Virus record (IMG/VR): IMGVR_UViG_3300030202_002193 | Location: 1 to 64,000 of that record | DNA from: a virus | Length of the DNA stretch: 64,000 bases | Strand: one strand, 5' to 3' | Shown: in pieces, positions 36,937-59,346 of the stretch | Layout of the letters: every line of letters starts with the position of its first letter | Numbering within the stretch: position 1 is the stretch's first letter | Position numbers and translations under genes: made by a program | Notes under the pieces: model-generated | Database searches by the model: none | Told to the model about the DNA's origin: nothing | The model's input: the letters and a program-made list of their open reading frames with translations, nothing else

Positions 36937-36976
36937 TTTCCTCAACTCTTCGTTTTTTAATTAGGTATTTAATGCT

Positions 36977-39490
36977 TTAGGGTTTTTCCGTATTTATTGA
37001 CAACTTTGCATATTTATCGTTATTGATATTCCAAATCCCTTTATCGCCTTCTTTGTCTGCTGGCTCTTGTTTATAGCCAGTCCAAGCCAACCACATTTCT
37101 TTATCGTCTACTGGGATTACTCTAAAGTGCATTTTAGTTTCAAATTTATTCCCCTTTATGAAATACTCATGGTAGCCATCTCTTTGTATTCCTAGAGTAA
37201 TATCTCCTTCGTCTATTACTTTGGAATCAGGGGAGATGGTAGTAGCGACTTCAGCAGGGAATTTCCCCGCTTTACCGAATAGGTTGAATATATCATCATC
37301 CGAATTAATATCAATAGTCCAATACATTGTCTCTTCAGATAATTTAATCGCAAATGTTAGGTTATCGTCCTTTCTAGAATATACCTTAAACTGGCCCTCC
37401 CTATATTCTGAAGGAGTTTGATATTCTTCTTCACTTAACATTATCTTATCAGAATCCGCCATGAATTTTTTCTCCTTATGGCTAAAAGTAATTCCATCTC
37501 TAGAATTAAACCATTGAGTTAATTTACCCATATTGCTATCCAATATACTATCATATAACCTTCCGACATCCTTAACTAAAAAATTATGTAGTTCTTTCAC
37601 AGTCATAGGCCCTCTTTCTTTCAATCTTTGAAATACTGAAACAGTTAATTCACTTTGTTTAGTTTTCATTATGTTTTCTGCATCGGCCTTCCAAGAATTT
37701 AAATTCATCATAGCATGTTTAGACATTAGATTATCTTCTTCGAATTCATACAAAGCAAAGCCGTCCATAGATTTTAGAATTGCTTCCCCATGAACATAAT
37801 CTGTAATCAGAATTCCTTTTTCTAAAGCCTTGGCCTTGAACTTCAGACTCTTTTTAGTTTCCTTAGATAGCATCTCTAATGTAACTATCTTATCAGGATA
37901 TTCTACTTCGGGTATTTCTATAACACTAGAACCATAAATGGTATATTTCTCACCATTGGTTTTTACTTCGTCCACCTTAACTCTAAGTATGTCTCCTATA
38001 TCTACATCCACTTTGGTATTATTTGCCTTACCTACATTCATATATTTTATTTTATCTAATTCTTTAATGTGCTTTCCTTCTCCTTCTGCCGGACCAGCAC
38101 CCAATGTGTATGAAAACATATTTGATTTTGTTTTCTTTTTATCTAAGACGATTAAATCTAAATCGACAAATTTCTTCCACTTAACCCATTTAGGATTTTT
38201 CTTAGTGCCTATGTAATATGTAGAAGTAATGTCTTTAATAACCACTCCTTCAGCAGTAGGCATCTCCATAATTTCTTTACTATATTCTTCAATGTCTTTT
38301 ATGCTATCCGCAATTCTAGTATCTTTCTTGGAAGGGAATTGCAAATGGTCATCCGAGTGCATGGAATAATTATTGAATAGAATGTTTATTCTTTCGGATA
38401 GTTCTTCTGAAGCCATATTTCTCTCATCATGTCTCATGATATCAAAAACATGAGCCTTTAATTCAGCATCCTGATATTGGTTCTTGAATACATGGGAAAT
38501 AGTATCTGCACGATGTAGGGCTTCTTCTCCATCGAACAAAATTAATTCTGCATCAAGAATACAATCTCCGAAGTGCTTTCTCTTAATTACCTCGACTTGC
38601 CTTTCACATTTGTCAGTAATGTCCTTTTCATTGTAAGAATATATTTTTACATTGTTATCTATCTTGTGAATCTGTATTCTCATACCATCATATTTTTCTT
38701 GAACAACCCATTCTCCGCTAAAGCCTTGTAATTCTTTGAGGTCATCTATCTCAAATATTCTATACATTGGCTTATTAGGTATTATGAAATCTACTTGGGC
38801 CTTTTCTTCTTGAGATTTTTCTGCTTTTTTAATCTCTACACCTAATAGGCGATTCCATTCTTCCTCCGTGTTTTTAGATAGGAAGAATAGTTTTAGTAGA
38901 GATAGACCATTCTTAAATCTAGATTCTATTTTCTTAGAATCCTTTCCATCTCCATAATGCTCTGTAATATATAACGGGATATCTTTAGGGTCTAAGTCTA
39001 ATCCTTTTAGACCAATAGTAATATCGTCCGGCTCTATATCTTTTATTGAATATAATTCATCAGATAAAACTTCATCATCGTTTCGTAGGGCATAATGAAT
39101 AAACTTAATCATAGTCCCGCTATCTTCCATTAATGCTTCTAGGACATTTCCTTTGAAGCGTTTTGCAAATGGGTCTTGAACTTCGTCTGATTCGAAGCGT
39201 AGCATTTTAATTGCATTGTAGACCTTCTCGGCAGTAGGAGTTTCAGGATTCATTGCATCTTTAGATTGTAAGATGTCTTCTGCTAGGTATTGTTCTAGTT
39301 GCCCGCCCAAGTAATCTAAATTATCGTATTCATCTCTTAGGTCTTCTATTGTTTTTCTCCATCTAGAGCCATAGGTTTTAGAATCACTCTTAGCAGATAG
39401 GTAGGCCACTCTAGTCTTTTCGAAGAGAGAGAGGATTTTATCAGAAACGGATTCAGTTTCCTTCTCAAATAGAAGGCCGGTCAGTGGCAT
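36977..39490 (-). CDS. lig: ATP-dependent DNA ligase with N- and C-terminal extra domains
   Basis: QEKYDGMR, ILDAEL, HVFDI, EGVVIK, WVKWK, OB fold. Confidence 0.92.
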   Translation of the reverse strand: MPLTGLLFEKETESVSDKILSLFEKTRVAYLSAKSDSKTYGSRWRKTIEDLRDEYDNLDYLGGQLEQYLAEDILQSKDAMNPETPTAEKVYNAIKMLRFESDEVQDPFAKRFKGNVLEALMEDSGTMIKFIHYALRNDDEVLSDELYSIKDIEPDDITIGLKGLDLDPKDIPLYITEHYGDGKDSKKIESRFKNGLSLLKLFFLSKNTEEEWNRLLGVEIKKAEKSQEEKAQVDFIIPNKPMYRIFEIDDLKELQGFSGEWVVQEKYDGMRIQIHKIDNNVKIYSYNEKDITDKCERQVEVIKRKHFGDCILDAELILFDGEEALHRADTISHVFKNQYQDAELKAHVFDIMRHDERNMASEELSERINILFNNYSMHSDDHLQFPSKKDTRIADSIKDIEEYSKEIMEMPTAEGVVIKDITSTYYIGTKKNPKWVKWKKFVDLDLIVLDKKKTKSNMFSYTLGAGPAEGEGKHIKELDKIKYMNVGKANNTKVDVDIGDILRVKVDEVKTNGEKYTIYGSSVIEIPEVEYPDKIVTLEMLSKETKKSLKFKAKALEKGILITDYVHGEAILKSMDGFALYEFEEDNLMSKHAMMNLNSWKADAENIMKTKQSELTVSVFQRLKERGPMTVKELHNFLVKDVGRLYDSILDSNMGKLTQWFNSRDGITFSHKEKKFMADSDKIMLSEEEYQTPSEYREGQFKVYSRKDDNLTFAIKLSEETMYWTIDINSDDDIFNLFGKAGKFPAEVATTISPDSKVIDEGDITLGIQRDGYHEYFIKGNKFETKMHFRVIPVDDKEMWLAWTGYKQEPADKEGDKGIWNINNDKYAKLSINTEKP

Positions 39491-42941: not shown

Positions 42942-44582
42942 TCAACCAACTCTTCTTTCTGTTCTTGAATCTACATTCTGATTTCCGGCTTCTCTAGGAA
43001 GTCCAGTAAACCTCTTATCCGGCCCTGTCTCCATACTCGGTTTATTTCTAGTTGCCGGTGGTTGCGATTTTCCGCCTTGTGCCATTTGTTGTTCCATCAT
43101 CTGCCCCATTTGGGAAGCATCGAAATTAGTTCCAGCGTAGGGGTCCAATTCTATTTCCCCTCCTTCTTCACCTTCTCCGCCACCCATTTCGTTTTCTTTA
43201 GGTTCAGGTTTGGAGAAAGTGAAATTTCCATCTTCATCCATTTCAACTTCAAATCCTAGATTTTTAGTAGAGGCCGCAATATTAACTTCTATCTCCCTTT
43301 GCCGAAGTTTTGCTATTTCATCCTCTTCTTCGCTAGGCGGTAGTCTCAAATCCCAATCAGTAATTCCAAATTGAGTAGTTAAGAACGGGAATACATATTC
43401 ATTGTAAACATTCTGTGCCATTTGTACTGCTCGATTAGTTACAAGAATCTGCATACCTTCATTATTTAATCCTCCACTAGCAGTAGAATCTGCCATGAAT
43501 ATTTTACTAACTCCGTAGAATGCAGAAATCCTATCTCTCAAATCATCTTTAACTGCAACATATTCCATTTCTTTTAGACTATCCATAAACTTAATCCATT
43601 CAATAGAACCCTTGCCGCCTTCTGCTTCTATTCCCATTACTGGAATATAGTGAGGGTCTTGTTCCATTCTTTCTTTAACCCCACGCCAAAAACTCATCAT
43701 GGATTCCATGTTTCTAGTTTGAACTGCAAGCATTCCTCTTGGCATCCTACTTTTAGTATAAGAGGCATTTACATAATTTTCCATAGCAAGTAAAGTCATA
43801 ATATGGTTGTATAAAGTAAGAACTGGAGAAAGACCGTATAGCCTACTAGGACTATATTTACTAAAGTGTAATACTTCTCCCTTAATGAAATACTGGTCAT
43901 CTCCTTTTGCTCTATTAACATAATGAACAGGGTACAATGAATCTCCACAAACTTCGCAACTATCATGTGCTTCAGAAGCAATAAATTCTCTATGATGAAT
44001 ACAAGTAAATCCTTTAGTTCCTCTTACACCATCTTCATCTGCATAAATGTGCATAGTAACAGGGTCTCCTCTAAAGATTTCTTTTATCCTGTGCATTCTT
44101 ATCTTCCCATTGCCATCAATATAATATTCCTTGACAAATACAATATAGGCATCATCCATGATATTCAAATCATCTTCTAACTCTTTAAGTACATCAATGA
44201 ATAACTGTTCTGACGAATTGACATATCCTTCCAGAAACTTCTCCGCATATTCTAATTGCTTTACATCGGGTAATTGTAGATTAGTACTTTCACATCTAGA
44301 ACATTCTTGGACGGGCCGTTGGTGTTCTTTACCGCAATCCTGACATCTTGCTTCATAGGACTTCTCCCAAGTATATCCTCTACGGAATACTTCTTGCTTT
44401 AATTGAGTTAAACAAGTTCTAGTAATTACAGAGTTTTGCACTATATTATAGATGAGTGGTCCGTTTAGCATTTGGGCTGGAGTTTTTTCCTGTATGCCAA
44501 TATTGTAGATTTCCCTATCAGTAGGAGTAGGAGTGGTCTTCCTAAATAAATTAGTCAAAGAGAATCTTCGCTTTTCTGCCAT
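42942..44582 (-). CDS. Portal protein with two Zn-ribbon insertions
   Basis: EVLHF...LYGLSPV, PRGML, ISAFYGV; CQDC..CSRC and CIHH..CEVC. Confidence 0.9.
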   Translation of the reverse strand: MAEKRRFSLTNLFRKTTPTPTDREIYNIGIQEKTPAQMLNGPLIYNIVQNSVITRTCLTQLKQEVFRRGYTWEKSYEARCQDCGKEHQRPVQECSRCESTNLQLPDVKQLEYAEKFLEGYVNSSEQLFIDVLKELEDDLNIMDDAYIVFVKEYYIDGNGKIRMHRIKEIFRGDPVTMHIYADEDGVRGTKGFTCIHHREFIASEAHDSCEVCGDSLYPVHYVNRAKGDDQYFIKGEVLHFSKYSPSRLYGLSPVLTLYNHIMTLLAMENYVNASYTKSRMPRGMLAVQTRNMESMMSFWRGVKERMEQDPHYIPVMGIEAEGGKGSIEWIKFMDSLKEMEYVAVKDDLRDRISAFYGVSKIFMADSTASGGLNNEGMQILVTNRAVQMAQNVYNEYVFPFLTTQFGITDWDLRLPPSEEEDEIAKLRQREIEVNIAASTKNLGFEVEMDEDGNFTFSKPEPKENEMGGGEGEEGGEIELDPYAGTNFDASQMGQMMEQQMAQGGKSQPPATRNKPSMETGPDKRFTGLPREAGNQNVDSRTERRVG

Positions 44583-44608: not shown

Positions 44609-44737
44609 CTATCTTTTATCAATGCTTCCTTGAGGATTATCCTTTGTAGGCTTCCCTGCTTTGACCCAACAACTGTCACAATATCCATATGGATTCTTTT
44701 GCTTAATAGTGTAGCAAATTCCACAATAAGTACTCAT
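44609..44737 (-). CDS. Small Zn-finger protein, 42 aa
   Basis: GGAGGG RBS, ATGA overlap; MSTYCGIC...YCDSCW. Confidence 0.6.
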   Translation of the reverse strand: MSTYCGICYTIKQKNPYGYCDSCWVKAGKPTKDNPQGSIDKR

Positions 44738-46335
44738 ATTATATTGCCCTCCATATCTATTTTTGTTCCATCGGCTCTAACTTCATGATAACTATACGCA
44801 TTAACTAACCATCCGGTAGTATCACTAATCCAATTAACTAAAGCGTCCTGTATGGTGTCGGTATCATCTTCTTCTTCAATTCCTAATTCTTCGGCAGTTA
44901 CGGCCATTTGCTGAAATAAGTCTAATTCTTCATCAGCGTCGTAATCAACTTCAGTAATTACAAAAGTTCTTTCTTGTTGCTTAACTATCATTCCACCAAT
45001 ATTTTCTAATTCATCCATTATACTCATCTTACAATTATCATGCAACTTTGCTACTGTTTCTATGTCTATACCATCTTTGGTGAAATCAAAACCAACATGG
45101 TCTTTATGATTTTCATATTTCATTAGTTTGAAGATTTCATCACATCTACCCTTATACCAATCAGCCTTCTTGTGTGATTTTTTCATGCGAATTAATTCTA
45201 AAAGTAGTTCTGCGTTTTTACCCTTCATTCTAAAATGAGGTAGGCACTTATTCAGTAATTCCCCAACATCTGCTTGAGAATAAAAGTTTAGGCGATTAAC
45301 AGGCCTAGTATTTTGTGGGGATTTTTGGTCTAAGTGTAAGCGACCGATTCCTAATGCTTTATGAATCTCAATCATAAATGCCTTCCCCCTATCTCCCGTC
45401 GCTACTAATCCAACTCTAGGATTCATGTTTCTATCGACTGTAATGTAGCCATCTGAATCAATGAATGCGGCAGTATAAGCATATATGTTCTTCTTAATTT
45501 CATTATCTAATTTATAATATGAACCATCAATATCGGTTATGTCTAACTTCTTAATTAGTTGAGGAATTATTTTCATCGTATTTCTTTTGTAAAGTCTAGT
45601 CGGCATACTATCTAGGATTTCTCTTGCACTAATTCCTTGGTGGCTACAAACTGCCTTTAGAATAAAATCATTAGTTTCTTCTTTTATTGTTTTACGGATT
45701 TTAGATAAGTCACTAACTTGTTTTCTGAATTCTCTTTTAGCATTATTCATAGTTTTTTGCAAAGAAGAATATTTTTTTCCATATACCATGTCTTTCTGTT
45801 CTAGTTGTGCCTCCCAAAACTTACAAATGGAATCTATCATTTTCCTTCTATTTTCTACATCCTTAATTCCGTGGATTTTTAACAGGTCGCCTTCAGTATA
45901 GCGCATTTGTTGTAGGGCGGGTTTGTATGGTTTGAGCCAATAAATGCTATTTACGCATTTGTCTAAGTGGTCGGAATATCCATCAATTAAGGTATCAATG
46001 GCCTTAGACATCTTATTCCTATGTTCTCCCTTTAGTTTTCTTCGTTCCTTTCTCATTGTCTTGATAATATCCGGAACATAAGTATCTTGAACTAAATATT
46101 TATCAGGAAAAATATCTAAGTGTTTTCTTGCTTGAGAAGCATTGATTCTAAACTCTTGACTTATTTTGGTAATGGCTTCAGATTCATCTACTATGTTCAA
46201 CCCTTGAATAAAACTAGTTAGTTTAATATCTAAGGATTGCTCAATTTCAGATTTAGCATTTTCAGCCTCTTCTTCTAAATCAGCCACCTGCTCTAGTCTT
46301 TGAGCCGCTTCTCTTTTTTCATCCGGAGTTGCCAT
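44734..46335 (-). CDS. Multidomain protein with a single LAGLIDADG endonuclease domain
   Basis: AYTAAFIDSDGYI...LGIGR...LPHFRMK; helical N-terminus plus wHTH; acidic C-terminal domain. Confidence 0.85.
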   Translation of the reverse strand: MATPDEKREAAQRLEQVADLEEEAENAKSEIEQSLDIKLTSFIQGLNIVDESEAITKISQEFRINASQARKHLDIFPDKYLVQDTYVPDIIKTMRKERRKLKGEHRNKMSKAIDTLIDGYSDHLDKCVNSIYWLKPYKPALQQMRYTEGDLLKIHGIKDVENRRKMIDSICKFWEAQLEQKDMVYGKKYSSLQKTMNNAKREFRKQVSDLSKIRKTIKEETNDFILKAVCSHQGISAREILDSMPTRLYKRNTMKIIPQLIKKLDITDIDGSYYKLDNEIKKNIYAYTAAFIDSDGYITVDRNMNPRVGLVATGDRGKAFMIEIHKALGIGRLHLDQKSPQNTRPVNRLNFYSQADVGELLNKCLPHFRMKGKNAELLLELIRMKKSHKKADWYKGRCDEIFKLMKYENHKDHVGFDFTKDGIDIETVAKLHDNCKMSIMDELENIGGMIVKQQERTFVITEVDYDADEELDLFQQMAVTAEELGIEEEDDTDTIQDALVNWISDTTGWLVNAYSYHEVRADGTKIDMEGNII

Positions 46336-46344: not shown

Positions 46345-47799
46345 TTAAAAGTTCAGGCCCATAATTCCTCTTCCGGCAAACGGTTTTGGTGCTACCGGCT
46401 TATCGTCAAAGATACCCAAATCGTCTAAATGAATAAACTTCTCGCTCATAGTATAAGTGGCGGCATTGGCCAAGGCTAAACTCATTACCATATCGTCGTG
46501 CGCCCCTATGCCTTCAAACTTGCCTCCTTCAGTAATAGCAAACATAGACAATTCTTCTATCAAAGTTGAAGTAACTCGCCTACTTTCTTCATTCCCGTAT
46601 GGAAGTCTCATTTTACCATTTTCGAAATTCATTTGTAGGTTAAGAATAATCTCTTGTTTTTTCTTTCTAGTGGTTGTGAAGTCATGAACATTAATATCAG
46701 ATACATGCTTTAATTCTTGGGTGAAAGACTTCGCAAAGATATTAGTTTCGAACAATACTACTTCGGGATTGAAAATCTTACCTATCATTTTTACTTTCTC
46801 TATGTTCTGCCGGAATTCTACATTCTTAGCCCTATCAACATATACTACAGTTTTATTATCGTTTTCGTCTACTTCTAATACTGTGATAACATTGTAGTCT
46901 CCATCAGTAGAAATGGCAGGGTCTACCCCCACATAATATTTGAAATCCTTTCTTCTATGTGGTTTTAATATGTAATCTTTAGACTTGGCATTATCTAAGT
47001 ATTCGGGATTGAATAGAGAAGTTCCTGTAGACATAGGAACACAAAGATATTCTCTAGTGAACGCAATTGTACCAATCTCTCCCTTTCTTAACATTAAGGA
47101 ATTGTAATCCCATCTATCAGGCCAAAGAGGTTCATTAAGTGCATTTAGGCAGGGATAGGTTCTAACCTCATAGACTTCATTTTCTGCAAGTTGAGAATAA
47201 ATATCTGTATAACTAAACGGAGTACCGATTACTCTTAATGATGCAGAATGGTGAAGAGTGGGAATCATATCACTGTAAAACCAATCAGTGACTTTCTGTA
47301 TAGCAGACATTGAAAATTCTTTCAAAGGGTCGTCAATAACAATTTCATTTGGGTGAAGTCCACGAATCTGTGAGCCTACAGACCTTGCTAGTAATTCATT
47401 GCCGTTAGTTAATCGAATATGCCCTACTGACCAGCCCCTAATAGGTTTGAATTTTTGTAGCATCGGGTGACTAAAATATTTGTCAATCTCTCGCATGTGT
47501 ACTAGAGTCTGCTTTTGGTTAGAAGAAATGTAAAGCATTTGGTAGCCTTTAGGTTGAAAGATTAAATTCCATATTACCCAACAGTGCATGAATACAGATT
47601 TTCCGTGGTCACGACTACAAATTAAAACTGTACGCTGAGTACTATTCATTAATTCTAACCACTCTTCCATATAATGTGGATAGAAATATTTGTCAATCCC
47701 CATAGCAGGGCCACAAACATGTTGAAAGAAATAAGGGAAGGAGTTTCTAGATAATTCGAAATCCATCTGATGTTCTAGATTAAATGCTTCGATTTCCAT
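46345..47799 (-). CDS. terL: Terminase large subunit
   Basis: SRDHGKS, IVIDD, IGTP, GVDPA, HDDMVMS. Confidence 0.95.
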   Translation of the reverse strand: MEIEAFNLEHQMDFELSRNSFPYFFQHVCGPAMGIDKYFYPHYMEEWLELMNSTQRTVLICSRDHGKSVFMHCWVIWNLIFQPKGYQMLYISSNQKQTLVHMREIDKYFSHPMLQKFKPIRGWSVGHIRLTNGNELLARSVGSQIRGLHPNEIVIDDPLKEFSMSAIQKVTDWFYSDMIPTLHHSASLRVIGTPFSYTDIYSQLAENEVYEVRTYPCLNALNEPLWPDRWDYNSLMLRKGEIGTIAFTREYLCVPMSTGTSLFNPEYLDNAKSKDYILKPHRRKDFKYYVGVDPAISTDGDYNVITVLEVDENDNKTVVYVDRAKNVEFRQNIEKVKMIGKIFNPEVVLFETNIFAKSFTQELKHVSDINVHDFTTTRKKKQEIILNLQMNFENGKMRLPYGNEESRRVTSTLIEELSMFAITEGGKFEGIGAHDDMVMSLALANAATYTMSEKFIHLDDLGIFDDKPVAPKPFAGRGIMGLNF

Positions 47800-48392
47800 T
47801 ATTGTTCACCTTTAGTTTTTTTGTAGTAACTACTTTCTTCTTCAACAGTAAGGGGCCTCCCTTCTTCTCTTTTAATATCTTCAAGAGTTGGTTGCCCTTT
47901 ACCTTGATTTCTATACATTTCGAAATAATTGTCAATTATTGTTCTTTTACTTCTTCTATCAACAATATTTTTTCTTTTAGACTGTTTCTTTTCTCTCTCT
48001 ATTTTTCTTCTTTCTGCAAGTTGTGTTTTCCTATATGTTAAGGCTTCATCTATTTTCTTCTGTCGGTCATATACATAGTTATAACCTCTTCGTAAATATT
48101 TTATTTTAGTTAGTATTTCTTCGTCACTTAATCTATAATTGGGAGTACGAAATAGTCTACTCACCTCGTCATGAAATCTCACTCCGTCTTCTTGTTTCAA
48201 CACCCTTTGCCACTTTTTTATTCTTGGGTCATGAATCATCTTTTCTGCATCTTTAGCGGCAATACCTCTATCTCTCAAGTCTCTGTATTCATGCCAAAAA
48301 TTCGGAACTCCGTATGCTCCGGCAATTTGATTAAATGCAACTCGCTTGTAATTATACAAGAAGTAGGCTTGCTCTAAAGACTGGAACGACAT
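47799..48392 (-). CDS. Basic hypothetical protein with an internal WQRVLKQ motif
   Basis: 197 aa ORF. Confidence 0.7.
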   Translation of the reverse strand: MSFQSLEQAYFLYNYKRVAFNQIAGAYGVPNFWHEYRDLRDRGIAAKDAEKMIHDPRIKKWQRVLKQEDGVRFHDEVSRLFRTPNYRLSDEEILTKIKYLRRGYNYVYDRQKKIDEALTYRKTQLAERRKIEREKKQSKRKNIVDRRSKRTIIDNYFEMYRNQGKGQPTLEDIKREEGRPLTVEEESSYYKKTKGEQ

Positions 48393-49898: not shown

Positions 49899-52199
49899 TC
49901 ACCTAAATTGTGCCTTCACTTGATATACAATTTCTTCAGATACTCCTAGAGATTTAGCAATATCAGAAAACGAATTAACTTCAGTAACTATTTTATCTAC
50001 TTCAGAATGTGACAAATCAACATGGAACTCCTTATACATCTTAGTAATAACTTCTTCAGAATGTTCGATAGTCAAGGGTCTAAAAGCATAAACGGCTTCC
50101 AAGCCCTTTATTTCTCTAATAATATCATGGGCTTTTAATAAAGATTTGAGAATAACTGGTAGATTTTCTGCCCTTCTCAATAAATCCTTTAATTTGCTAA
50201 CTTCGTTCTTCATCCCTGCTCTTTCAATAAGACCTCTATGTTTCATTAAATAGGCCGGTAAAATAAATAGGGGAAAGGGTTTTCCTGAAGCATAGTCTGT
50301 ACGATATTGTTTTTCTCTTTCACTAATTAACTTCTTATTGAACTTTCTATCTCCAATTTCTTGTCCCATTTCGTCATATAAATATTTAATTATAGCCGCC
50401 ATATGGTTATCATTTTCTTCTTGTAAGTCAAATAAAGCAGTAAGAGCAGTAGCGGCATCTTCTCCCTTTTGAGTTAATTCCATATCTAGCCCACCTTCTC
50501 CGCTAATTACTGCGTTAAGGAACTTGTAGATAGCGGTAATATGGGACTTTTTCACTATGAATCTATTATTTAAGATATTAGAATACGCAGTACCCGATAA
50601 TGTCTGAACGCCTAAATTGGATGCACCTGCTGAAATTCTAAAAGCCCCTACTGATTTAACGAAATCTACTTCTGCTATGGGTAATTTACCACTATAACTA
50701 GGGGAGAGATAATAGGCATCAATAGCCTCTAATAACTCCTTAAATGCTTCTCTAGCCTTTTTCATTTCGCCCTTATGCCCTGCTTGCATAGGGGCTTCCG
50801 AAGGTAGGCCTTCTTCTACTGAAAAGTTTCGTCTAACGCTTTTACTAGGTAGCATCGGAGGGAACTCGAATAATAAATTTCCTACTGTTTCTAAAAATTC
50901 TAATATGTTAGAAGTATTGTTCTCACCATCTACGGTGCTTCCTTTAGGAAGATGCTCTATTATATTGTGAGGTAAATAGAATTCAGAAATATCCGATGTA
51001 ATAGTTTCTTTCATTTCCTCAATATCTTTCTGTATTCTAGGAGACATTAGAACTCCTAAATCCGAATATTGGGCATTCGCATTTTCAATAGACCCTATAA
51101 TGTAGTCATGGATTTCTTCAAATCCTTTCTTAGTAATGGCTATTGTCTTTTTAGATAAATCAGATTTAGGGGAATTGAAGTAATAAGATAGTAAGGGGTC
51201 TACTTCCTTTCCTTCTCCTTCTAAAAATCTTAGGAGTTCATCGTCTTGAGAACTATTTGTCAATGTGGGGTCTATCATAGAAAAATCTTGGCCATCCGTC
51301 TTAGCGGCAGTTCGTAACTCCATTTGCATTTGGGAATTAACATCCCCTGCTATTTCTCCAGTCTCTTTCTTTTCTTCTTCTAATATCTCTTTATGTAAAT
51401 TGTAGGCGGTTTCTAAACTAACTATATACGAATATGCCCTACCTAATGGTACTGAAGTACTTACTGTAACTGGGTCAAATCTATGCACATAACTCAAATC
51501 TTTGTCCTTGAATTCCAAAAGACTAGATAATAAGTCATCCCATTTAGCATCTACCTCTTTGCCTTCAAACATTTGTTCTAACTGTTCCATCATTGGTTTC
51601 ATTAATATATTTTCTAAAGCATTTTTAAGTTTTTTATATTTACCAGCAACATCTCCCCAATATTTGTAGATGACATCTCTATTCTGTACGGAACTTAGTG
51701 GTAGGCCCCCAAGGTAACTATCTATTTTAATAGCCTTAGTAGATTTTTTTCCAGTAATAGCATAAGCCTTGGTTTCATCTATTGCATCTAATAAAACATC
51801 CACATTATGTTGTATTATAATATCAGAAGGGGTGACAGGGGGATTATTTTTTAGGGCCACCTGTATAACCTGTAGATTTTTTTCTAAAGCAGTTATGTCC
51901 TTTTCAGGATTGTTGGTAGTAGAAAATAATCTAATGTTTGTTGGTAGTTTTCCCTTTAAGGCGGTGGTTTTAGTAATAGTTTTGTTACTCTTCGTTTTGA
52001 TTCTTACGCCCTTCAGAGCCTTTTCGAACATTTGAAATGGACTATCAGAGCGACTAATTTTATCTTTTAGTTCTTGGATTTTAGCATCTGCCCCTTCTCC
52101 AAACTCTTCCCTCATGTCAGCAAAGATTTCTGCCTGTTCTGTTTTTCTTTGGCTTTTAGGGAGTCTAGATAATCTATCTGCAATTTCGTCAATGTTCAT
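49899..52199 (-). CDS. Large hypothetical protein, probable internal head protein
   Basis: 766 aa; VILKSLLKAH; C-terminal HTH-like FSDIAKSLGVS. Confidence 0.75.
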   Translation of the reverse strand: MNIDEIADRLSRLPKSQRKTEQAEIFADMREEFGEGADAKIQELKDKISRSDSPFQMFEKALKGVRIKTKSNKTITKTTALKGKLPTNIRLFSTTNNPEKDITALEKNLQVIQVALKNNPPVTPSDIIIQHNVDVLLDAIDETKAYAITGKKSTKAIKIDSYLGGLPLSSVQNRDVIYKYWGDVAGKYKKLKNALENILMKPMMEQLEQMFEGKEVDAKWDDLLSSLLEFKDKDLSYVHRFDPVTVSTSVPLGRAYSYIVSLETAYNLHKEILEEEKKETGEIAGDVNSQMQMELRTAAKTDGQDFSMIDPTLTNSSQDDELLRFLEGEGKEVDPLLSYYFNSPKSDLSKKTIAITKKGFEEIHDYIIGSIENANAQYSDLGVLMSPRIQKDIEEMKETITSDISEFYLPHNIIEHLPKGSTVDGENNTSNILEFLETVGNLLFEFPPMLPSKSVRRNFSVEEGLPSEAPMQAGHKGEMKKAREAFKELLEAIDAYYLSPSYSGKLPIAEVDFVKSVGAFRISAGASNLGVQTLSGTAYSNILNNRFIVKKSHITAIYKFLNAVISGEGGLDMELTQKGEDAATALTALFDLQEENDNHMAAIIKYLYDEMGQEIGDRKFNKKLISEREKQYRTDYASGKPFPLFILPAYLMKHRGLIERAGMKNEVSKLKDLLRRAENLPVILKSLLKAHDIIREIKGLEAVYAFRPLTIEHSEEVITKMYKEFHVDLSHSEVDKIVTEVNSFSDIAKSLGVSEEIVYQVKAQFR

Positions 52200-54253
52200 G
52201 CTTGGACCTCCGTAACAATGTTCTTGTCTAGTAGTTTATTTAATAACTTCTTCGGAAGTTGGCCTTTACCGTCACCGACTCCCTTAGAGTTTATTATCTT
52301 GCGAAGATTCTCTTCAAAGAAATATATTAGGGCATTTCTATAGGCAAGTATTCTTCCCTGTATAGTTGATTCTAATTCATCAATTAGTTTTCTTTTATCC
52401 TTCGCCTTATCTATCCTCTCATAGAACCCTAAAACAGAATCACTTCCAGTACTTCCTAGTAAAGAATCTAACTTAGCAAAAAATGGAATTAGTTTTTTAG
52501 GACTTAGTGAAGATAATGTAAGGGAGCCTCCTAGGGGTTCTCTAGCCGTTTTTACTAGAGGATAAGAAAGCATTAGTTGTCTAAACCCTGTCTCTGATAA
52601 TAAAGAAGCAACAGATGAAGAAATCTCAAGACGAGTCAATTCTTTTTCCGGTAAATTACCTTTTAAGTTACTAAGTAAGTCTTTAATTTCAGACGGCACA
52701 AACTCTTCTATTTCTCCATCCTCTTCTCCGACTATTTTGAATCTTCTAAGTGAGCCTATCATGACTTCTTCGAAATCTATAGTAGTTTTATCCTCTAAAA
52801 TATCTCCCACTAATAATTCCTTAACTCCTATATTTTCTATTGCCTCGTCTAATACTCTTTTCATTTTAGGAGATACAGTAGTAGACATCTCTTCCGCATT
52901 CGCTTCACTTATATCTTCTATATCTACTTGTTTCATGAACCATCTCTTGAAAGGTTCCGGTTGTTCAGGAACTTCCTCAGAATCCAAATCAATTTCTATT
53001 CCGAATAAAGGAGTGGAAACTTTTCCAGATTCTTCATTGAATACTTTCATAGCATCTTCTAATAGTAAAGGCCTTAATTTACCAGCATCAATAATCTCCA
53101 ACTTTTTAGTTTGTGTCAATAAAGTATCGAACCAATTCGGTCCATCAATGGCAGTAAGTAATAGGCTCAAATAGGGGTTTGTTCGTAAACTCCCCCCTGC
53201 TTTTGTAGGGAATACTAAGTCTTGTACCAAAGAAGAAGATAGGGTAATTTCTTCTCCTCTTTCTGTAATTTTCATATCTACTCCCTTTGGAATAAATATA
53301 GAAGACTTGACACCTTTGGTTTTACTAACAGTTTCTATAAATTCTGTAAGCATTCGGTTATCAAATTGATTTACTTCATAGAATTTAGCATCAGGTATGG
53401 TTAATTTTCTACTAACTCCGGCAGATTCTATTGTTGGTACATATGATTTAATTTCTACTAAAATAGGGTTCAGAATCTCTTTGAATTGTCTACCATCTGT
53501 TATTGCTGAAAGTCTTCTAAATTCCTCGGCATAGGTTCTGAGAGAAGTAGGTTTCATCCTACCCATACTGCCTTCGCCGGTAAAATCTATATTTCTGTCT
53601 TCATCTAAGAAGAAAGAGTTCCAATTTTTCATCCATTCTCCTACTGTTAGATTAGGATAGTGGATTACCCAAGACCGTTCCTTAATTCCTAGCCAAAGTA
53701 CTTTTCCTTGGATAATTTTAGCAAATTTTTCTAAAAGTTTCTTAGAAGGGTTTCCAGCCTTAAAATATAATATGCTACCCTTGTCTATTTTCTGCAAATC
53801 TCTCTGCAATTGCCGTAAATCTTCATCTCGCATTATTTTAGGGTATTTTTGCGCCAATTTCAAAAATTCGTCGATTTTATCGGTATTTCCGCCCTCTTTT
53901 ATCTCTTGAGCGAGAGTATTCAGTTTTACTCTAGGACTATCCGCACTTTGTCTCTTTTTTGTGCCATATCTTTCTACAAGTAGGTCCATTTTTTGCTTCA
54001 TTGGCGCAATATCCATGTTTTCCCTGAATCTTGGAGTAAATTCTCTAACAAATCCGTCCTTATCTTTAGAATATTTATCCAATGCTTCGATTAATTTGTT
54101 AAAATCTCTTCTTTTTTGGTTTTCTGTAGGAGAATCTCGCATATCATCAAGAATTGGCAGTTGAGTTTCTAAAATATCTAAAGAAAATGCGGGAGAAAGC
54201 ATCCCTTGGACTAAATCTATGGCAGTTTGCCTCTTCAATAACTCGGTCCACAT
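52196..54253 (-). CDS. Large leader protein (MWTELLKR)
   Basis: 685 aa; shared leader. Confidence 0.75.
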   Translation of the reverse strand: MWTELLKRQTAIDLVQGMLSPAFSLDILETQLPILDDMRDSPTENQKRRDFNKLIEALDKYSKDKDGFVREFTPRFRENMDIAPMKQKMDLLVERYGTKKRQSADSPRVKLNTLAQEIKEGGNTDKIDEFLKLAQKYPKIMRDEDLRQLQRDLQKIDKGSILYFKAGNPSKKLLEKFAKIIQGKVLWLGIKERSWVIHYPNLTVGEWMKNWNSFFLDEDRNIDFTGEGSMGRMKPTSLRTYAEEFRRLSAITDGRQFKEILNPILVEIKSYVPTIESAGVSRKLTIPDAKFYEVNQFDNRMLTEFIETVSKTKGVKSSIFIPKGVDMKITERGEEITLSSSLVQDLVFPTKAGGSLRTNPYLSLLLTAIDGPNWFDTLLTQTKKLEIIDAGKLRPLLLEDAMKVFNEESGKVSTPLFGIEIDLDSEEVPEQPEPFKRWFMKQVDIEDISEANAEEMSTTVSPKMKRVLDEAIENIGVKELLVGDILEDKTTIDFEEVMIGSLRRFKIVGEEDGEIEEFVPSEIKDLLSNLKGNLPEKELTRLEISSSVASLLSETGFRQLMLSYPLVKTAREPLGGSLTLSSLSPKKLIPFFAKLDSLLGSTGSDSVLGFYERIDKAKDKRKLIDELESTIQGRILAYRNALIYFFEENLRKIINSKGVGDGKGQLPKKLLNKLLDKNIVTEVQA

Positions 54254-54259
54254 GAAAAC

Positions 54260-54562
54260 TCACTTAGAATCCCTACTTCCACGCCTTCTAATAATTATTT
54301 TTGCCGACAATTGGCCCATTTTTGCCCTAATTGCCTTTAATTTTTCTGAAATAGTGTTAATTTTTAGAGAAATCTGCTCATCCTCTTCAGAAGTCTTTGC
54401 ATTTTTTCTCGCTATACTTAGTTTGGAAAGTTCGCCCTCTATTTCTCGCATTTTCTTTACCATACTATCCATTTTTTTCTGCAATTCCGAGTCATAATCT
54501 GTAACTTGAAAGCGTTTCCTCTGCTCTCTACGGATTCTTTTCAGTATATCTTCCCAACTCAT
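54260..54562 (-). CDS. Cassette leader protein (MSWEDILKR), basic coiled coil
   Basis: Starts within the 22-bp repeat. Confidence 0.75.
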   Translation of the reverse strand: MSWEDILKRIRREQRKRFQVTDYDSELQKKMDSMVKKMREIEGELSKLSIARKNAKTSEEDEQISLKINTISEKLKAIRAKMGQLSAKIIIRRRGSRDSK

Positions 54563-54573
54563 TGTAATTCCTC

Positions 54574-54819
54574 CTAGATATTATATTCTAACTCTCTTGT
54601 AGAAATATGTATTTCTTCTAATCTCTTTAGCCTATCTTGTAAATCAGCAAATTCTTCTTGCGCCCTTTCCATATCTTTTTCTTCAAGAATAAGAGTTTCG
54701 ATATACTTTAGATGTTCATATAAGTCTGCAAATCTATCAACGCCTAGTTCCATAATCACTTTGATGTAATACCTAACATCGTCATAGATGTCTTTCTTTA
54801 GAAGATTTTTCCAACTCAT
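54574..54819 (-). CDS. Cassette leader protein (MSWKNLLKK)
   Basis: Bounded by 22-bp repeats. Confidence 0.75.
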   Translation of the reverse strand: MSWKNLLKKDIYDDVRYYIKVIMELGVDRFADLYEHLKYIETLILEEKDMERAQEEFADLQDRLKRLEEIHISTRELEYNI

Positions 54820-54830
54820 TGTAATTCCTC

Positions 54831-55154
54831 CTAGGCATAATCCTCTAATATGGTATCAACATCTTCAGAATAATTTTCTGCAACTATATCCCAATCTACA
54901 TCATTAATAGAATCTGTTGAACCATCATAATCTTCCCTTTCTAATTCTTCCATAAAACCTTCCATGTGCATCATAACATTAGGAAGCCAATTTGCCAACT
55001 TATCCATGAGTTCTTCTTTTTCATATCCCGACATAACTAGAGATTCAATATATGCTAATACCTTTCTATAAGTCTCTTCTTCATTCATTATCCAAAGTTC
55101 AGCAGAACGAGTAGCAGTATCTATTTTTTTTCTAATGATATTTTTCCAACTCAT
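54831..55154 (-). CDS. Cassette leader protein (MSWKNIIRK), acidic
   Basis: Bounded by 22-bp repeats; LWIMNEE...VDWDIVAE. Confidence 0.75.
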   Translation of the reverse strand: MSWKNIIRKKIDTATRSAELWIMNEEETYRKVLAYIESLVMSGYEKEELMDKLANWLPNVMMHMEGFMEELEREDYDGSTDSINDVDWDIVAENYSEDVDTILEDYA

Positions 55155-55170
55155 TGTAATTCCTCCTGCA

Positions 55171-55395
55171 TCAAATTTCAACTACACTATCGTAAGCACT
55201 TTCAAATCCCTCATCATCTAAGGCAAGGCAATTCCTACAAGAATAGCCCTCAGAGGGTTCATTGGGTCTAAAATTATCATCACTGAATCTTCTAAAATCA
55301 GATACATAATACTCTGCCCTGCCTGTGCAATTAGGAGAACGCCTTATGTCACACCTTAACTTTTTATCTTCTTTCAAAATTTTCTTCCAACTCAT
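55171..55395 (-). CDS. Cassette leader protein (MSWKKILKE), Zn-finger-like
   Basis: C...C...CRNC; bounded by 22-bp repeats. Confidence 0.75.
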   Translation of the reverse strand: MSWKKILKEDKKLRCDIRRSPNCTGRAEYYVSDFRRFSDDNFRPNEPSEGYSCRNCLALDDEGFESAYDSVVEI

Positions 55396-56051
55396 TGTAA
55401 TTCCTCCTGCATTTGTTTCTTTACATCAAGCCAAACTTCGGGATGGTTTTGTGCCAATACCTTTTGTACGACTTGCATTTGGTGAACGATAATTGTATCT
55501 TGTCTACGGTGAACCAACTTGCCCTTGAACTCCATAATATATTTCAAACTTTCACGAACTTCTCTAGCCAACTTAACCAAAGCATCTAGTTCTTTGTGAC
55601 TTAAATCATCTTGACCAAATAACTCATCCACCTTAGCATCCAATCTTTGAACATTCAGACTTAACATCTCAATCTCATTGACTTCTTTCTTTGCTATGAT
55701 ATTAGCCGCAGACTTCTGCACTAGTGGAGCCAAGTGGTTTTTCATGTGCCTTTGTACTTGTGTCTTAGAAATGCTTAGAGTTTCAGCAATGGCTTCTGAA
55801 GTAACTTCTCCGGAACTCAATGCTTTTTCATAGTGACTTCTCATAGGGTCGGTACAAAAACCACATCTAGGATTGCTACTGTTTTGATAATCGCCCATGT
55901 GATTTCTTTGGTGTTGGGCGGCAGTTCCGCTTCTCCAACCTTCTCTTTTATCTAAGTCATCACAAGATATTGACATAGAATCTATTTCAGATTCCAATTC
56001 ATCTCTTGCCTCATGTTGGCAAAACTTACAACGCTTGCGGGTTACTGTCAT
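55392..56051 (-). CDS. Tandem Zn-finger/HTH plus coiled-coil protein, candidate terminase small subunit
   Basis: CKFC...HQRNH and CGFC...HTH...HMKNH repeats; helical oligomerisation-like tail; upstream of terL. Confidence 0.55.
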   Translation of the reverse strand: MTVTRKRCKFCQHEARDELESEIDSMSISCDDLDKREGWRSGTAAQHQRNHMGDYQNSSNPRCGFCTDPMRSHYEKALSSGEVTSEAIAETLSISKTQVQRHMKNHLAPLVQKSAANIIAKKEVNEIEMLSLNVQRLDAKVDELFGQDDLSHKELDALVKLAREVRESLKYIMEFKGKLVHRRQDTIIVHQMQVVQKVLAQNHPEVWLDVKKQMQEELQ

Positions 56052-56055
56052 AATA

Positions 56056-57381
56056 TCACGCCTGTTCAATTAAATGAATTGTATATTTAGCCACCTGTTC
56101 TAGTTGAGGTTCAGTTAAAAGGTTAATATCTTCTGTTCTATTAGGATGAACCCCACCTCTTGTTGTAGGCCTATCATATTTCATAACAAGTTTTTCTATT
56201 TCTCTACTTATACTTCCTATTTTAGCCCCTCGGCTAAATTGGTGTAGTCTAGATAATTTTGCAGACAACTCTATACTTTTACCCCTATTAACCAAATTTT
56301 GCATATAGGGTCGTAGTTGTTTTGCAATTGCTATAGGTAAATCATATTCTACTAACATTGCCAGCCATTGAGGATAATTCTCTGTACGCTTTACAATATC
56401 TAGCCAAGATTTAGCAACCGGTACTCCTTCCTTTCTAGGTCTTTTATCTACGACCTTACCATGAATGTAGAATCCACCGACCTTCTTCTTAGTGGAAGCG
56501 AGATACGCCCTTTCTACAATGGCAGGTGAAACCTTAACAGTAAATTCCTCTACATCTCCAGTCACTTCTTCTTCAGAAAATCCACTCAATCTTCTAACTA
56601 TTGCTTCTTCTGCTTCACCAGTCACGCCAAACTTTTGACTTGCCAATTTTCCAGCAATTGCCTTAGCATTAATTACTCCCTCTTTAACTAAAGCCGGAGT
56701 TAATTGGCTTTCTAAGAATTGCTTAACCTGAGACAACTTATACAATTCTTTAGGATTAGAAACTCTAGTAATTTCAAATGTAATATCTGCCTCTTCTAAC
56801 TCTTTAAGTGCATCTTCTAAAATATATTTCAATCCTTTTGGACTCTCTTTAGAATATACTACTTGATGAGGAGGAGGAGTAGGGGGGTTGTTTACATCAT
56901 AACTATACCAAGACTTAGGAACTGGGGTGTCGCCCTTAAACTTCTTACTATATTTTACAAACTCCGCAGTTTTCCAATGCCCGTAAACTTTTCTCTTACC
57001 TATGTTTTTTCCTGATTTGTCATATATGTTGATGTGATATGGTATCATGGCAGGGTCAGCCTTAGTACCTTTAGCCGCATCAATAAATTTCAAATATGCT
57101 TTAAGATAATCTATTTCTTTTGTTCCTATGAAATCATCATAGTCCATAATTTCCATAAGTCTTGGCAAATGGTCTCGATGGCCTCTAGAAGCACCTTCGA
57201 TTGTTTCCATTCCAGTTCGTCTTGTGACAGTGTTGGAGGACTTAATTCCGTGTCGTAGAATAAAATCTACTCCTTCTAATTCCTTCCATTCCTGAAACTC
57301 TTTGAAAAAATTAGTAGACTTCAATTCCTGTTGAGCAGTATTGCCATTCTTAGTCTTAGTCTTTTTCTTCATCTTTGGCAT
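56056..57381 (-). CDS. Hypothetical protein with an internal leader copy (AKSWLDIVKR)
   Basis: 441 aa ORF. Confidence 0.75.
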   Translation of the reverse strand: MPKMKKKTKTKNGNTAQQELKSTNFFKEFQEWKELEGVDFILRHGIKSSNTVTRRTGMETIEGASRGHRDHLPRLMEIMDYDDFIGTKEIDYLKAYLKFIDAAKGTKADPAMIPYHINIYDKSGKNIGKRKVYGHWKTAEFVKYSKKFKGDTPVPKSWYSYDVNNPPTPPPHQVVYSKESPKGLKYILEDALKELEEADITFEITRVSNPKELYKLSQVKQFLESQLTPALVKEGVINAKAIAGKLASQKFGVTGEAEEAIVRRLSGFSEEEVTGDVEEFTVKVSPAIVERAYLASTKKKVGGFYIHGKVVDKRPRKEGVPVAKSWLDIVKRTENYPQWLAMLVEYDLPIAIAKQLRPYMQNLVNRGKSIELSAKLSRLHQFSRGAKIGSISREIEKLVMKYDRPTTRGGVHPNRTEDINLLTEPQLEQVAKYTIHLIEQA

Positions 57382-57721
57382 TTTTATTACCTCCTATTCT
57401 GCCTTCACTAAAAAGAGGTTTATGAGCCGCACTACTTGTAGTTACCGTTCCAGCAACCTTTTCCATTTCTCCATTCAAAGAATCTAAAATTGTAGGGAGT
57501 ACTGATTGTAGGTCGTAGACATTCGTATTAAAATCGCCATAATTTACCCTATATGCCGAACCGCCCCTTCTCTTAACTGTGATTTTTCCCCTATCAGAAT
57601 CCAAAGTAAAATTGTCCCCTGCCCTACTGCTACCACCTGAAATCTCCCCACCGATTATATTTTGAATGTTTTGTAGAAACATCCTAGGGGTCATCATCTT
57701 TAATACATTTTTCCAAGTCAT
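57356..57721 (-). CDS. Leader protein (MTWKNVLKM)
   Basis: Shared leader. Confidence 0.75.
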   Translation of the reverse strand: MTWKNVLKMMTPRMFLQNIQNIIGGEISGGSSRAGDNFTLDSDRGKITVKRRGGSAYRVNYGDFNTNVYDLQSVLPTILDSLNGEMEKVAGTVTTSSAAHKPLFSEGRIGGNKNAKDEEKD

Positions 57722-57978
57722 TTCTTTCCCCTCTCTAATCGGTCTTGTAATTGAATAAGTTCCGGCATAATTTCCATATATTGTTTCAACATGTCTTCAT
57801 CGTTGCCTAAATATTTTTCAAGAAAAATCTGTTTCATAACTGGGTCTCTTTTGATTTGATAATACACGGCTCTACTGTTCCTACCAGAATTTTTTATCAT
57901 ATTGTCTAATTGAACAATTTTGGTTCTAATTTTCTTAGTGGAATATTTTTTTTCTTTGAGGATAGTTTCCCACCTCAT
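57718..57978 (-). CDS. Leader protein (MRWETILKE)
   Basis: AGGAGG RBS; shared leader. Confidence 0.75.
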   Translation of the reverse strand: MRWETILKEKKYSTKKIRTKIVQLDNMIKNSGRNSRAVYYQIKRDPVMKQIFLEKYLGNDEDMLKQYMEIMPELIQLQDRLERGKK

Positions 57979-58142
57979 TCTTTATTCCTCCTGAATACTT
58001 TAGCCCATGCTTGAGCCTTAGTTAAAGTGGTAGTCTTTTTCTTTTGGCCTGTAACTAAACAAGTACCATAATCATTCTCAACTTTGTCAAGTTTAGCAGA
58101 TTCATTATCTAACCAGCCCTCTAAATAATTGCATCGTGTCAT
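57975..58142 (-). CDS. Hypothetical protein, 55 aa (MTRCNYLEGW...)
   Basis: GAGGG RBS; ATGA overlap; manual translation. Confidence 0.6.
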   Translation of the reverse strand: MTRCNYLEGWLDNESAKLDKVENDYGTCLVTGQKKKTTTLTKAQAWAKVFRRNKE

Positions 58143-58144
58143 AT

Positions 58145-58402
58145 TTAATCCCTCGATGTAAATGCCCTTCCGCTTCCCATTCTAGGAGGGACTTTTTTAT
58201 TTGCATTCCTCGTCCTTTCAATTAAGGGGTGAGTTTTTAATTCCTTTTTAGGAACAGGAGGAGTAGCGTCTGCATGTTCTTCTCTCTGATGCCCAACCAA
58301 TTCTTTTAGAGAACTGTATTTCTTACCACAAATAGAACAAACTTCTTTTTTGTGGGCATCAGATGGAATATATCCTATTTTAACAATATCTTTCCATGAC
58401 AT
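58145..58402 (-). CDS. Leader protein (MSWKDIVKI) with C2H2 zinc finger
   Basis: CSICGKKYSSLKELVGHQREEH. Confidence 0.8.
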   Translation of the reverse strand: MSWKDIVKIGYIPSDAHKKEVCSICGKKYSSLKELVGHQREEHADATPPVPKKELKTHPLIERTRNANKKVPPRMGSGRAFTSRD

Positions 58403-58407
58403 ATTAA

Positions 58408-58827
58408 TCACCAACTAATATCTACGCTCTTGATATAGAATTCACCATCTTTTCGCCCTATCTCAATATCAGCCTCCGGCATGATATACGAACCCATACT
58501 CACTTTATCCAATTTTTCCACTTCTATATTTTCTGAAGTTTTCAATTCTAAATCTAAAGCCAATTCTTCTACTTCTTCTCCAATATCTTCAATAGAAGAA
58601 ATACTAACAACAACAGATTGCACACTAGGTTGATTCAATTCCAAACCATCTCCATCAACTTCAATACTCATACTCCAATTAACTGTTACACTATACCAAT
58701 CAATATCAATATCAATATCAGAACCACTTCCTCTATAAGTAACCATAGTATTGTGATTTCTATTAGGTTTTACAGTAGTTTCAAAGGTATAACTCTCTAA
58801 AGCACCCTTCAGTATATCTTTCCACAT
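58408..58827 (-). CDS. Leader protein (MWKDILKG), acidic, beta-rich
   Basis: GGTGA RBS within the repeat unit. Confidence 0.75.
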   Translation of the reverse strand: MWKDILKGALESYTFETTVKPNRNHNTMVTYRGSGSDIDIDIDWYSVTVNWSMSIEVDGDGLELNQPSVQSVVVSISSIEDIGEEVEELALDLELKTSENIEVEKLDKVSMGSYIMPEADIEIGRKDGEFYIKSVDISW

Positions 58828-58856
58828 AATATCACCAAAATTTTCCCGTATTTTTT

Positions 58857-59111
58857 TCAAGTCCTCGAAAGGACATCTGCCTCTCCAGCAGATTCAGAAA
58901 TATCCTTTATCATTTCTTCTGCAATATCACTTATTGCTAAAAGAACCGCATCCTCCGCACTAACGGAATGCTCAAATTGCCTTTCCATCATCTTTGCATC
59001 TTCACCCGCTTTATCTGATAAATCGCTCATAAGATTTCTTATTTCGCTTTCTAATGCTTGTCTAAGAGTACTAGTCATAGTGTAGCGTTTTTTAATCGTA
59101 TCTTTCCACAT
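58857..59111 (-). CDS. Leader protein (MWKDTIKK)
   Basis: Start refined to the leader. Confidence 0.75.
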   Translation of the reverse strand: MWKDTIKKRYTMTSTLRQALESEIRNLMSDLSDKAGEDAKMMERQFEHSVSAEDAVLLAISDIAEEMIKDISESAGEADVLSRT

Positions 59112-59133
59112 AAAAATTCCCCGAAATTTTTTT

Positions 59134-59346
59134 TCAGTAGCCTCGTATATTCTGCAAAATATCAGATAATTTATCAATACAATAGGCCAGCATTTTTGGC
59201 TTTTCAAGCGCATGTCTATCTTCAGCCTTATCACTGATTTCATTACACAAATCTTGTATTTCCTCAACCATACTTTCAACGGTGTCCGTTGGGGCATAGT
59301 TTCTATATTCGTCATCTTCTTTCTTTATCTCGTTTTTCCAACTCAT
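59134..59346 (-). CDS. Leader protein (MSWKNEIKK)
   Basis: Start refined; GGTGA RBS. Confidence 0.75.
   Translation of the reverse strand: MSWKNEIKKEDDEYRNYAPTDTVESMVEEIQDLCNEISDKAEDRHALEKPKMLAYCIDKLSDILQNIRGY

Follow-up and report, generated by a model that had tools for sequence, protein, structure and literature searches.

How does a virus come to carry, behind one conserved gene, a row of small unrelated genes that all open with the same stretch of DNA, and by what means are such genes gained, lost and exchanged? The question is raised by a minus-strand locus at 52196-56069 of a window of 64,000 nucleotides (nt), that is, positions 1 to 64,000 of the IMG/VR virus record IMGVR_UViG_3300030202_002193, an 84.5-kb genome rated complete. 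By its gene content, the virus appears to be a tailed, group-B-type magrovirus, attributed to marine Poseidoniales (marine group II) archaea. In the surface ocean, magroviruses belong to the most abundant viruses; their hosts are uncultured, and both their evolution and the roles of their many small genes are barely known. A sequence-only reading of the window had described four gene cassettes, each headed by an exact 22-bp copy of the 3' end of the resident upstream gene, and had likened them to an integron or to a CRISPR (clustered regularly interspaced short palindromic repeats) array. In our assessment, the locus is likely a hypervariable array of promoterless accessory-gene cassettes, bounded by a portable joint of about 25-40 nt and turned over by short-homology recombination.

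Anatomy of the array and its joints

The array extends from a conserved gene of 225 amino acids (aa), hereafter the anchor, through four cassettes to a large gene that closes it. The cassettes and the large gene all begin with variants of a short peptide, hereafter the tag.

55392-56069, minus strand: anchor gene, 225 aa, with a Cys-rich N-terminus, a helix-turn-helix (HTH) and long helices; present in all related arrays
55387-55408, minus strand: joint J4 (anchor/cassette 1), exact 22-mer with an ATGA stop/start overlap
55171-55395, minus strand: cassette 1, 74 aa, four Cys, tag MSWKKILK, ORFan
55146-55167, minus strand: joint J3 (cassette 1/cassette 2), exact 22-mer
54831-55154, minus strand: cassette 2, 107 aa, acidic (isoelectric point, pI, 4.1), helical, tag MSWKNIIR
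54811-54832, minus strand: joint J2 (cassette 2/cassette 3), exact 22-mer; the TAG stop of cassette 2 overlaps the Shine-Dalgarno (SD) motif
54574-54819, minus strand: cassette 3, 81 aa, acidic, tag MSWKNLLK, ORFan
54554-54575, minus strand: joint J1 (cassette 3/cassette 4), exact 22-mer
54260-54562, minus strand: cassette 4, 100 aa, basic (pI 10.2), coiled-coil-like, tag MSWEDILK
52196-54253, minus strand: large gene closing the array, 685 aa, with a tag shorter by one residue, MWTELLK

Exact search recovered the 22-mer AGGAGGAATTACAATGAGTTGG at these four joints, spaced 257, 335 and 241 nt apart as originally described, and found no further copy with up to three mismatches in the window or the whole genome; by chance, none is expected (0 copies in 100 shuffles). 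Each interval between repeats corresponds to one open reading frame (ORF), all on the minus strand, and the four bodies share no similarity past the first 8-12 residues, so that the intervals indeed hold one unrelated gene apiece.

The repeat is a translation joint, composed of the SD motif AGGAGG, the 7-nt spacer AATTACA and the start ATG AGT TGG, and it also carries the last codons and the stop of the upstream gene. The outermost copy encodes the 3' end of the anchor (...KKQMQEELQ, stop), the TGA of which overlaps the ATG of cassette 1 as ATGA, just as the sequence-only reading had it. The longer identity that this reading had noted for the neighboring copy is also real: beyond the 22-mer, the two copies nearest the anchor share 28 nt, ATGC included, compared with 24 and 22 nt shared by the two distal copies with J4. 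J3 is identical to both J4 and J2 over 28 nt, J2 and J4 have 24 nt in common, and the other pairs fall within 22-28 nt. The distances from stop to start between the genes of the array are 0-20 nt, which leaves no room for promoters; judged by this layout, the cassettes are promoterless, co-oriented and translationally coupled.

The architecture bears directly on two readings. CRISPR arrays, which are accompanied by a leader and cas genes, have repeats of 23-50 nt and spacers that are non-coding and about 25-50 nt long, whereas the intervals here span 235-313 nt, each a complete protein-coding gene, and the repeat is a ribosome-binding site with a start codon. The CRISPR likeness was rejected because the intervals are genes; in the window, only a Cas4-like nuclease of the PD-(D/E)XK type, encoded among the replication genes, gave a Cas-related match. 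Tandem duplication of a single gene, followed by divergence of the copies as paralogs, would explain why the four genes are alike in their first eight residues and upstream sequence, and cassettes 2 and 3 do align weakly (30% identity over 60 residues, tag included). Past the tag, however, no similarity is detectable, the lengths (74-107 aa) and pI values (4.1-10.2) differ, cysteines occur in cassette 1 only, cassette 2 is closer to cassettes of other viruses than to those of its own array, and 89 of the 217 cassettes of relatives are singletons. With such unrelated bodies, an origin by tandem duplication is very unlikely, and it was rejected as well.

Variation of the locus among related viruses

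Homologs of the anchor, 45-94% identical, were found in 66 fetched loci, most of which were retrieved via the joint itself. One of these homologs (L031, 4478-5143, plus strand) contains an in-frame stop, which may represent a sequencing error, a pseudogene or recoding. In 42 complete arrays, between 0 and 10 cassettes separate the anchor from a fast-diverging gene of 600-840 aa, and nearly all the small genes are tagged. These 217 cassettes comprise 51 families and 89 singletons, and families occur at differing positions in different arrays. The nearest relative, with an anchor 94% identical and a downstream gene 79% identical, shares none of the four cassettes of the window. Thus, the variable number and content of cassettes that had been predicted for relatives was found when the check was run.

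The joint is conserved across the family. Its consensus, TGCAGGAG[AG][AG]ATTACA followed by ATGAGTTGG, is found again at 152 internal joints; where the anchor gene ends, its positions are 82-98% conserved and encode MQE[EK]LQ-stop. The triplet TGC that precedes the SD motif is retained in 25 of 55 internal joints (among those listed with a TTACA spacer), the ATGA overlap is present in 53 junctions, either between cassettes or between a cassette and the large gene, and the anchor-like ending [QKE]E[EKR]LQ is present in at least 24 of 194 unrelated cassettes. The expectation that repeats in relatives match the 3' end of the upstream gene is therefore borne out by the conserved joint and the shared QE[EK]LQ-stop ends. 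The view that copies of the end of the resident gene head the cassettes holds family-wide, with one correction: the 22-mer is not simply the end of the neighboring gene, because it is a family-wide translation joint together with the first codons of a tag that also occurs elsewhere.

Among the cassettes of the window, the family of cassette 2 is widespread in relatives, and a homolog of cassette 4, 65% identical, occupies the equivalent last position in locus L006. No relatives of cassettes 1 and 3 were detected in IMG/VR, except for a partial match of 33 residues to cassette 1.

A natural variant without cassettes 1 and 2

Twenty public runs from nine studies, indexed by 31-letter words, contain a 2201-nt stretch of the locus. 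In 17 of these, the share of matching words is 0.74-0.76, and 0.74 equals 1 - 576/2201. Contigs of four runs were compared with the stretch; these are assembled contigs, from which frequencies are not readable. Contigs from runs X3, X5 and X18, representing three independent studies, join position 54808 to position 55385 with 0 mismatches, and one such contig, of 7,006 nt, remains identical across the anchor gene. The missing block is:

54809-55384, minus strand: 576 bp containing cassettes 1 and 2, absent from the commoner variant; breakpoints in J2 and J4

At the variant junction, 24 nt fit either side, and the event immediately adjoins the anchor gene. The exact proteins of cassettes 3 and 4 were found on 34 and 32 contigs, respectively, and those of cassettes 1 and 2 on 6 and 3.

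The four-cassette form was seen in a single study, from 2014 (runs X1 and X2), and X1 contigs break at the repeats, as would be expected if short repeats had produced a chimeric contig. However, the 31-letter index words exceed the repeats (22-28 nt) in length, a 367-nt contig of X1 covers J2, cassette 2 and J3 with 0 mismatches, and the contigs with the exact proteins of cassettes 1 and 2 include one of 84,597 nt. Given these spanning contigs, an assembly artifact was rejected, its probability being close to negligible. An exact 47-nt pattern of the two-cassette joint had no match in IMG/VR or JGI metagenome contigs, a negative that carries little weight.

Other short contigs of X1 match joints only (54536-54576 and 55138-55171, with 2-4 mismatches) and then continue into unrelated sequence, so other cassettes, or related viruses with these joints, co-occur in that sample.

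Exchange of cassettes between divergent viruses

In six pairs, the identity between cassettes exceeds that between the respective anchors by at least 20 percentage points, for example, 99% against 55% and 97.5% against 57%. Cassette 2 of the window is 84% identical to a cassette of locus L032, the anchor of which is 61% identical. In the two blocks examined, the shared DNA consists of one cassette and its joints, and the flanks diverge: loci L034 and L074 share 404 nt at 99% identity, and positions 54795-55171 of the window are 89% identical to L032 at the nucleotide level. The exchanged blocks end in joints. At the level of these comparisons, cassettes are shown to move between divergent viruses, and together with the natural variants this indicates where and how magroviruses gain, lose and exchange accessory genes.

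In loci L043 and L045, a tagged protein of about 305 aa has the domain of cassette 2 as its C-terminal portion, so cassettes can also fuse.

Polarity of turnover

Pairs of complete arrays of unequal length that share a cassette family were used to compare positions. Numbered from the far end, the shared cassette has the same position in both arrays in 15 of 34 comparisons; numbered from the anchor, it does so in 4 of 34. The mean displacement is 1.2 and 2.4 positions, respectively. These counts, along with the 576-bp event beside the anchor, support turnover concentrated next to the anchor gene. The proposal of polarized acquisition can accordingly be kept in part: change does concentrate at the anchor end, whether by insertion or by deletion.

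The anchor is the only long conserved homology at the locus. The large gene at the opposite end diverges fast (in relatives with anchors 94% and 89% identical, it is 79% and 42% identical, respectively) and would be too dissimilar for recombination. Exchange between co-infecting relatives that used anchor homology on one side and a joint on the other would replace the proximal cassettes, and this might produce the observed polarity.

The N-terminal tag

The start codons within the joint open an eight-residue tag, M-x-W-[KEQ]-x-[ILV]-[LIV]-[KR], which in the minus-strand operon is present on at least 11 ORFs that start with ATG; the total rises to about 18 genes, located between 26580 and 59346, when an M-W variant and corrected starts are counted. 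Upstream of tagged genes that lie outside the array, the sequence differs from the array joint. In 0.79 Mb of related loci, we found 518 distinct tagged proteins, with the consensus MSWKDILK. At tag positions 7 and 8, Leu and Lys codons are used at near-background frequency, which indicates selection on the protein. Where residue 2 is Ser, it is encoded by AGT in 89% of the tags, compared with 29% of Ser codons in gene bodies, and codons 4-5 are also A/T-biased; these biases point to an effect at the nucleotide level near the start, or to common descent.

Two features are needed here:

57356-57978, minus strand: two further tagged genes upstream of the anchor region, starting MTWKNVLK and MRWETILK
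35761-36945, minus strand: head protease-scaffold of the HK97 family, 394 aa, whose C-terminal tail, ...NMSWADLNRLAGN, resembles the tag

As the first two genes demonstrate, the tag also occurs outside the array. The tail of the protease-scaffold is conserved as M-[SDN]-W-[SAN]-[DE]-[LIV]-[HN]-[KR] in 121 homologs; it has M1, W3 and D5 in common with the tag, along with a hydrophobic residue at position 6 and a basic one at position 8. On the strength of this resemblance, the tag is probably, although more tentatively than the array itself, a capsid-loading address. If so, the cassettes might constitute a fast-changing set of proteins carried in the virion and into the cell, offering a route to archaeal anti-defense factors and a possible protein-delivery tag.

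In the structural model of cassette 2, which is otherwise confident and helical (predicted local distance difference test, pLDDT, 82.5), the tag is the low-confidence N-terminus and presumably flexible. The fold had no significant match in PDB or BFVD (best rows with E > 0.2). Among the non-significant PDB rows is the DNA mimic Ocr (E 2-3, template modeling score 0.33-0.40), noted as a lead only. Prediction of a complex between the capsid protein and cassette 2 scored 0.00, which counts neither way on binding.

Further tag-like sequences occur in the window. Additional small tagged genes at 57356-59346 (minus strand) have a different, more degenerate upstream repeat. At 30812-31982 (minus strand), among presumed tail genes, three tandem ORFs of about 122-137 aa all start with a shorter tag, (L/I-T-)M-W-[QK]-[KM]-I-L-K; the first and third are 29% identical over 77 aa, and the second is unrelated. 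Internal tag-like strings are present in a 441-aa protein (WLDIVK at residue 326; 56056-57381, minus strand) and in a 197-aa protein (WQRVLK at residue 61; 47799-48392, minus strand).

Mechanism of cassette turnover

Like the cassettes of integrons, those described here are co-oriented and, by their layout, promoterless, vary in number and content, and turn over preferentially toward a fixed element. An integron mechanism in the strict sense is nevertheless contradicted by the lack of a recombinase and of hairpin potential at the joints. The whole 84.5-kb genome yielded no match to the tyrosine recombinase profile PF00589 or the serine recombinase profile PF00239 at E values up to 1, in searches where the controls scored (14 of 14 control genomes for PF00589), so that the absence of an integrase noted earlier for the window extends to the genome. 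The 22-mer is not palindromic, no attC-like hairpins were found at the joints, and inverted repeats in 53900-56200 have arms 92-1466 nt apart. There is no integrase, attC hairpin or attI site, and the repeats are translation signals and coding sequence.

A broader version of this idea is that a dedicated recombinase recognizes the 22-mer and inserts circular cassettes beside the resident gene. The promoterless, co-oriented cassettes, the change concentrated beside the anchor and the two-cassette indel bounded exactly by repeats would all fit, and a recombinase of a novel family or one supplied by the host is conceivable. The complete genome nonetheless lacks both recombinase families, the joints lack attC-like arms and do not form inverted repeats, and the repeat is fully accounted for as ribosome-binding site, start and tag codons, the conservation of which needs no recombinase. 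We therefore regard site-specific capture as highly improbable.

Functional convergence is a stronger competitor. Under this explanation, coupled translation maintains the joint, selection maintains the tag, and turnover results from illegitimate recombination followed by selection for intact genes. The composition of the joint (SD motif, spacer, ATG, and the ATGA overlap in 53 junctions), the protein-level selection on the tag and the different upstream sequences of tagged genes outside the array all agree with it. Several observations do not: TGC upstream of the SD motif is often kept (25 of the 55 joints listed) without a coding or SD role; the copies in the window are exact over 22-28 nt where relatives tolerate variants at several positions, which suggests recent copying; and the indel and the two exchanged blocks end inside repeats, with 24 nt in common at the indel joint. 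On balance, convergence appears improbable as the full explanation.

The account that we favor, short-homology recombination between joints, would proceed as follows. The joints would serve as short homologies for the general recombination of the virus or the host, and no dedicated recombinase would be required. Possible routes include unequal exchange, exchange between co-infecting relatives, and re-entry of excised circles. An incoming gene would bring the joint and the tag with it and would thus be translated immediately by coupling and addressed like the others.

Several considerations weigh against this account and its extension to the virion. Recombination at the joints was inferred from breakpoints rather than directly observed, and selection for intact genes would likewise place breakpoints at gene boundaries. 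Deletion between direct repeats explains the 576-bp event as well as insertion does, and the population data are assembled contigs, in which rare forms such as circles are not readable. Selection for efficient coupled translation might account in part for the exact conservation of the joint. The polarity derives from only 34 comparisons of related, non-independent genomes. As for the capsid address, the tag has L/I at position 7 where the scaffold tail has H/N. The resemblance to this tail is the only, indirect, pointer to incorporation of tagged proteins into the prohead, and an HK97-family protease that might cleave them is encoded.

The most far-reaching version of the scenario envisages a recombinase-free polar capture array in which the joint acts at once as crossover site, translational coupler and capsid-loading address that mimics the scaffold tail, so that captured genes become virion-delivered proteins, for example, anti-defense proteins, injected into Poseidoniales. 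Taken as a whole, this combination is speculative, and we judge it rather unlikely. The integron-like logic, seemingly achieved without a recombinase, bears on how modular gene capture might arise from translation signals alone.

Comparison with known systems

The closest parallel is provided by the PeSL (promoter-early stem-loop) cassettes in hyperplastic regions of T4-type phages (PMC2839356; PMC4122927). In phages phi1 and RB49, motif-bounded indels separate close relatives, and mini-circles were detected (Arbiol et al. 2010; PMC2839356). In both systems, the accessory genes are small, are mostly ORFans and lie between short, conserved regulatory motifs, and recombination between motifs accounts, or in the present case would account, for indels and replacements without a dedicated recombinase. 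The likeness was tested here: contigs that are otherwise identical differ by the 576-bp block, which J2 and J4 delimit, and the exchanged blocks end in joints. In contrast, a PeSL is an intergenic promoter with a terminator stem-loop, which gives each gene its own transcription signals, whereas the array has a 22-28-nt translation joint with no stem-loop, intergenic space or room for a promoter, and consists of promoterless cassettes with a common protein tag in a virus of a predicted archaeal host.

Polymorphism of the internal-protein (ip) locus of T-even phages was reportedly described by Repoila and colleagues in 1994 and Comeau and colleagues in 2007. As in the array, unrelated small proteins there have a short N-terminal peptide in common, the locus is polymorphic among relatives, and the shared leader gives homology for swapping. 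The peptide of T4, however, is proven to mediate prohead loading and is removed by the prohead protease, whereas the tag is known from sequence only; the tag also has another sequence, occurs on far more genes (about 18 per genome), and resembles the tail of the protease-scaffold and not a T4-type sequence. N-terminal capsid targeting is established for DarB of phage P1 (PMC9024508) and for T4 internal proteins (Mullaney & Black 1996, cited therein).

By analogy, the tag may also be compared with short terminal peptides that send unrelated proteins inside a shell of the HK97 fold. Cargo-loading peptides of encapsulins are usually C-terminal and have been experimentally tested, and the HK97 protease is said to have a C-terminal capsid-targeting tail (work of Duda and colleagues in 2013). 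The tag differs in being N-terminal, with a putative role suggested by sequence resemblance.

The array logic is thus a variant of known phage genome plasticity. The tag strings were not found in the literature searched, and the magrovirus literature searched yielded no prior description of the N-terminal motif, the cassettes or their arrangement. The joint provides a simple sequence handle for cataloging this mobile gene pool across metagenomes.

Genome context

The array lies in the late (structural) operon. The following genes, given with their positions, place it among viruses:

46345-47799: large terminase, tailed-virus gene, 8 kb from the anchor
44734-46335: nuclease gene between terminase and portal, with a match to an HNH-endonuclease PHROG
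42942-44582: portal, tailed-virus gene
36977-39490: ATP-dependent ligase, between the portal and capsid genes, inside the head module
34404-35774: capsid protein, tailed-virus gene
763-2496 and 3960-4850, plus strand: family-B DNA polymerase (PolB), split into two ORFs about 1.5 kb apart

An ERCC4 nuclease is also encoded. Group B magroviruses are characterized by a split PolB, a ligase and a homing endonuclease in the structural module, and archaeal-type replication genes (Philosof et al. 2017; PMC5434244). The gene content agrees with this description; the nuclease here is of the HNH type compared with LAGLIDADG in that report. No close relative was found among INPHARED phages, where the best match of the large terminase was 27.6% identical.

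The label of small terminase (TerS) that the sequence-only reading had suggested for the anchor was not confirmed: the protein gave weak HTH matches only, and its helical model (pLDDT 66) had no significant fold match (best rows with E > 0.8). The late operon also includes an ORF of 2,336 aa at 13283-20293 on the minus strand.

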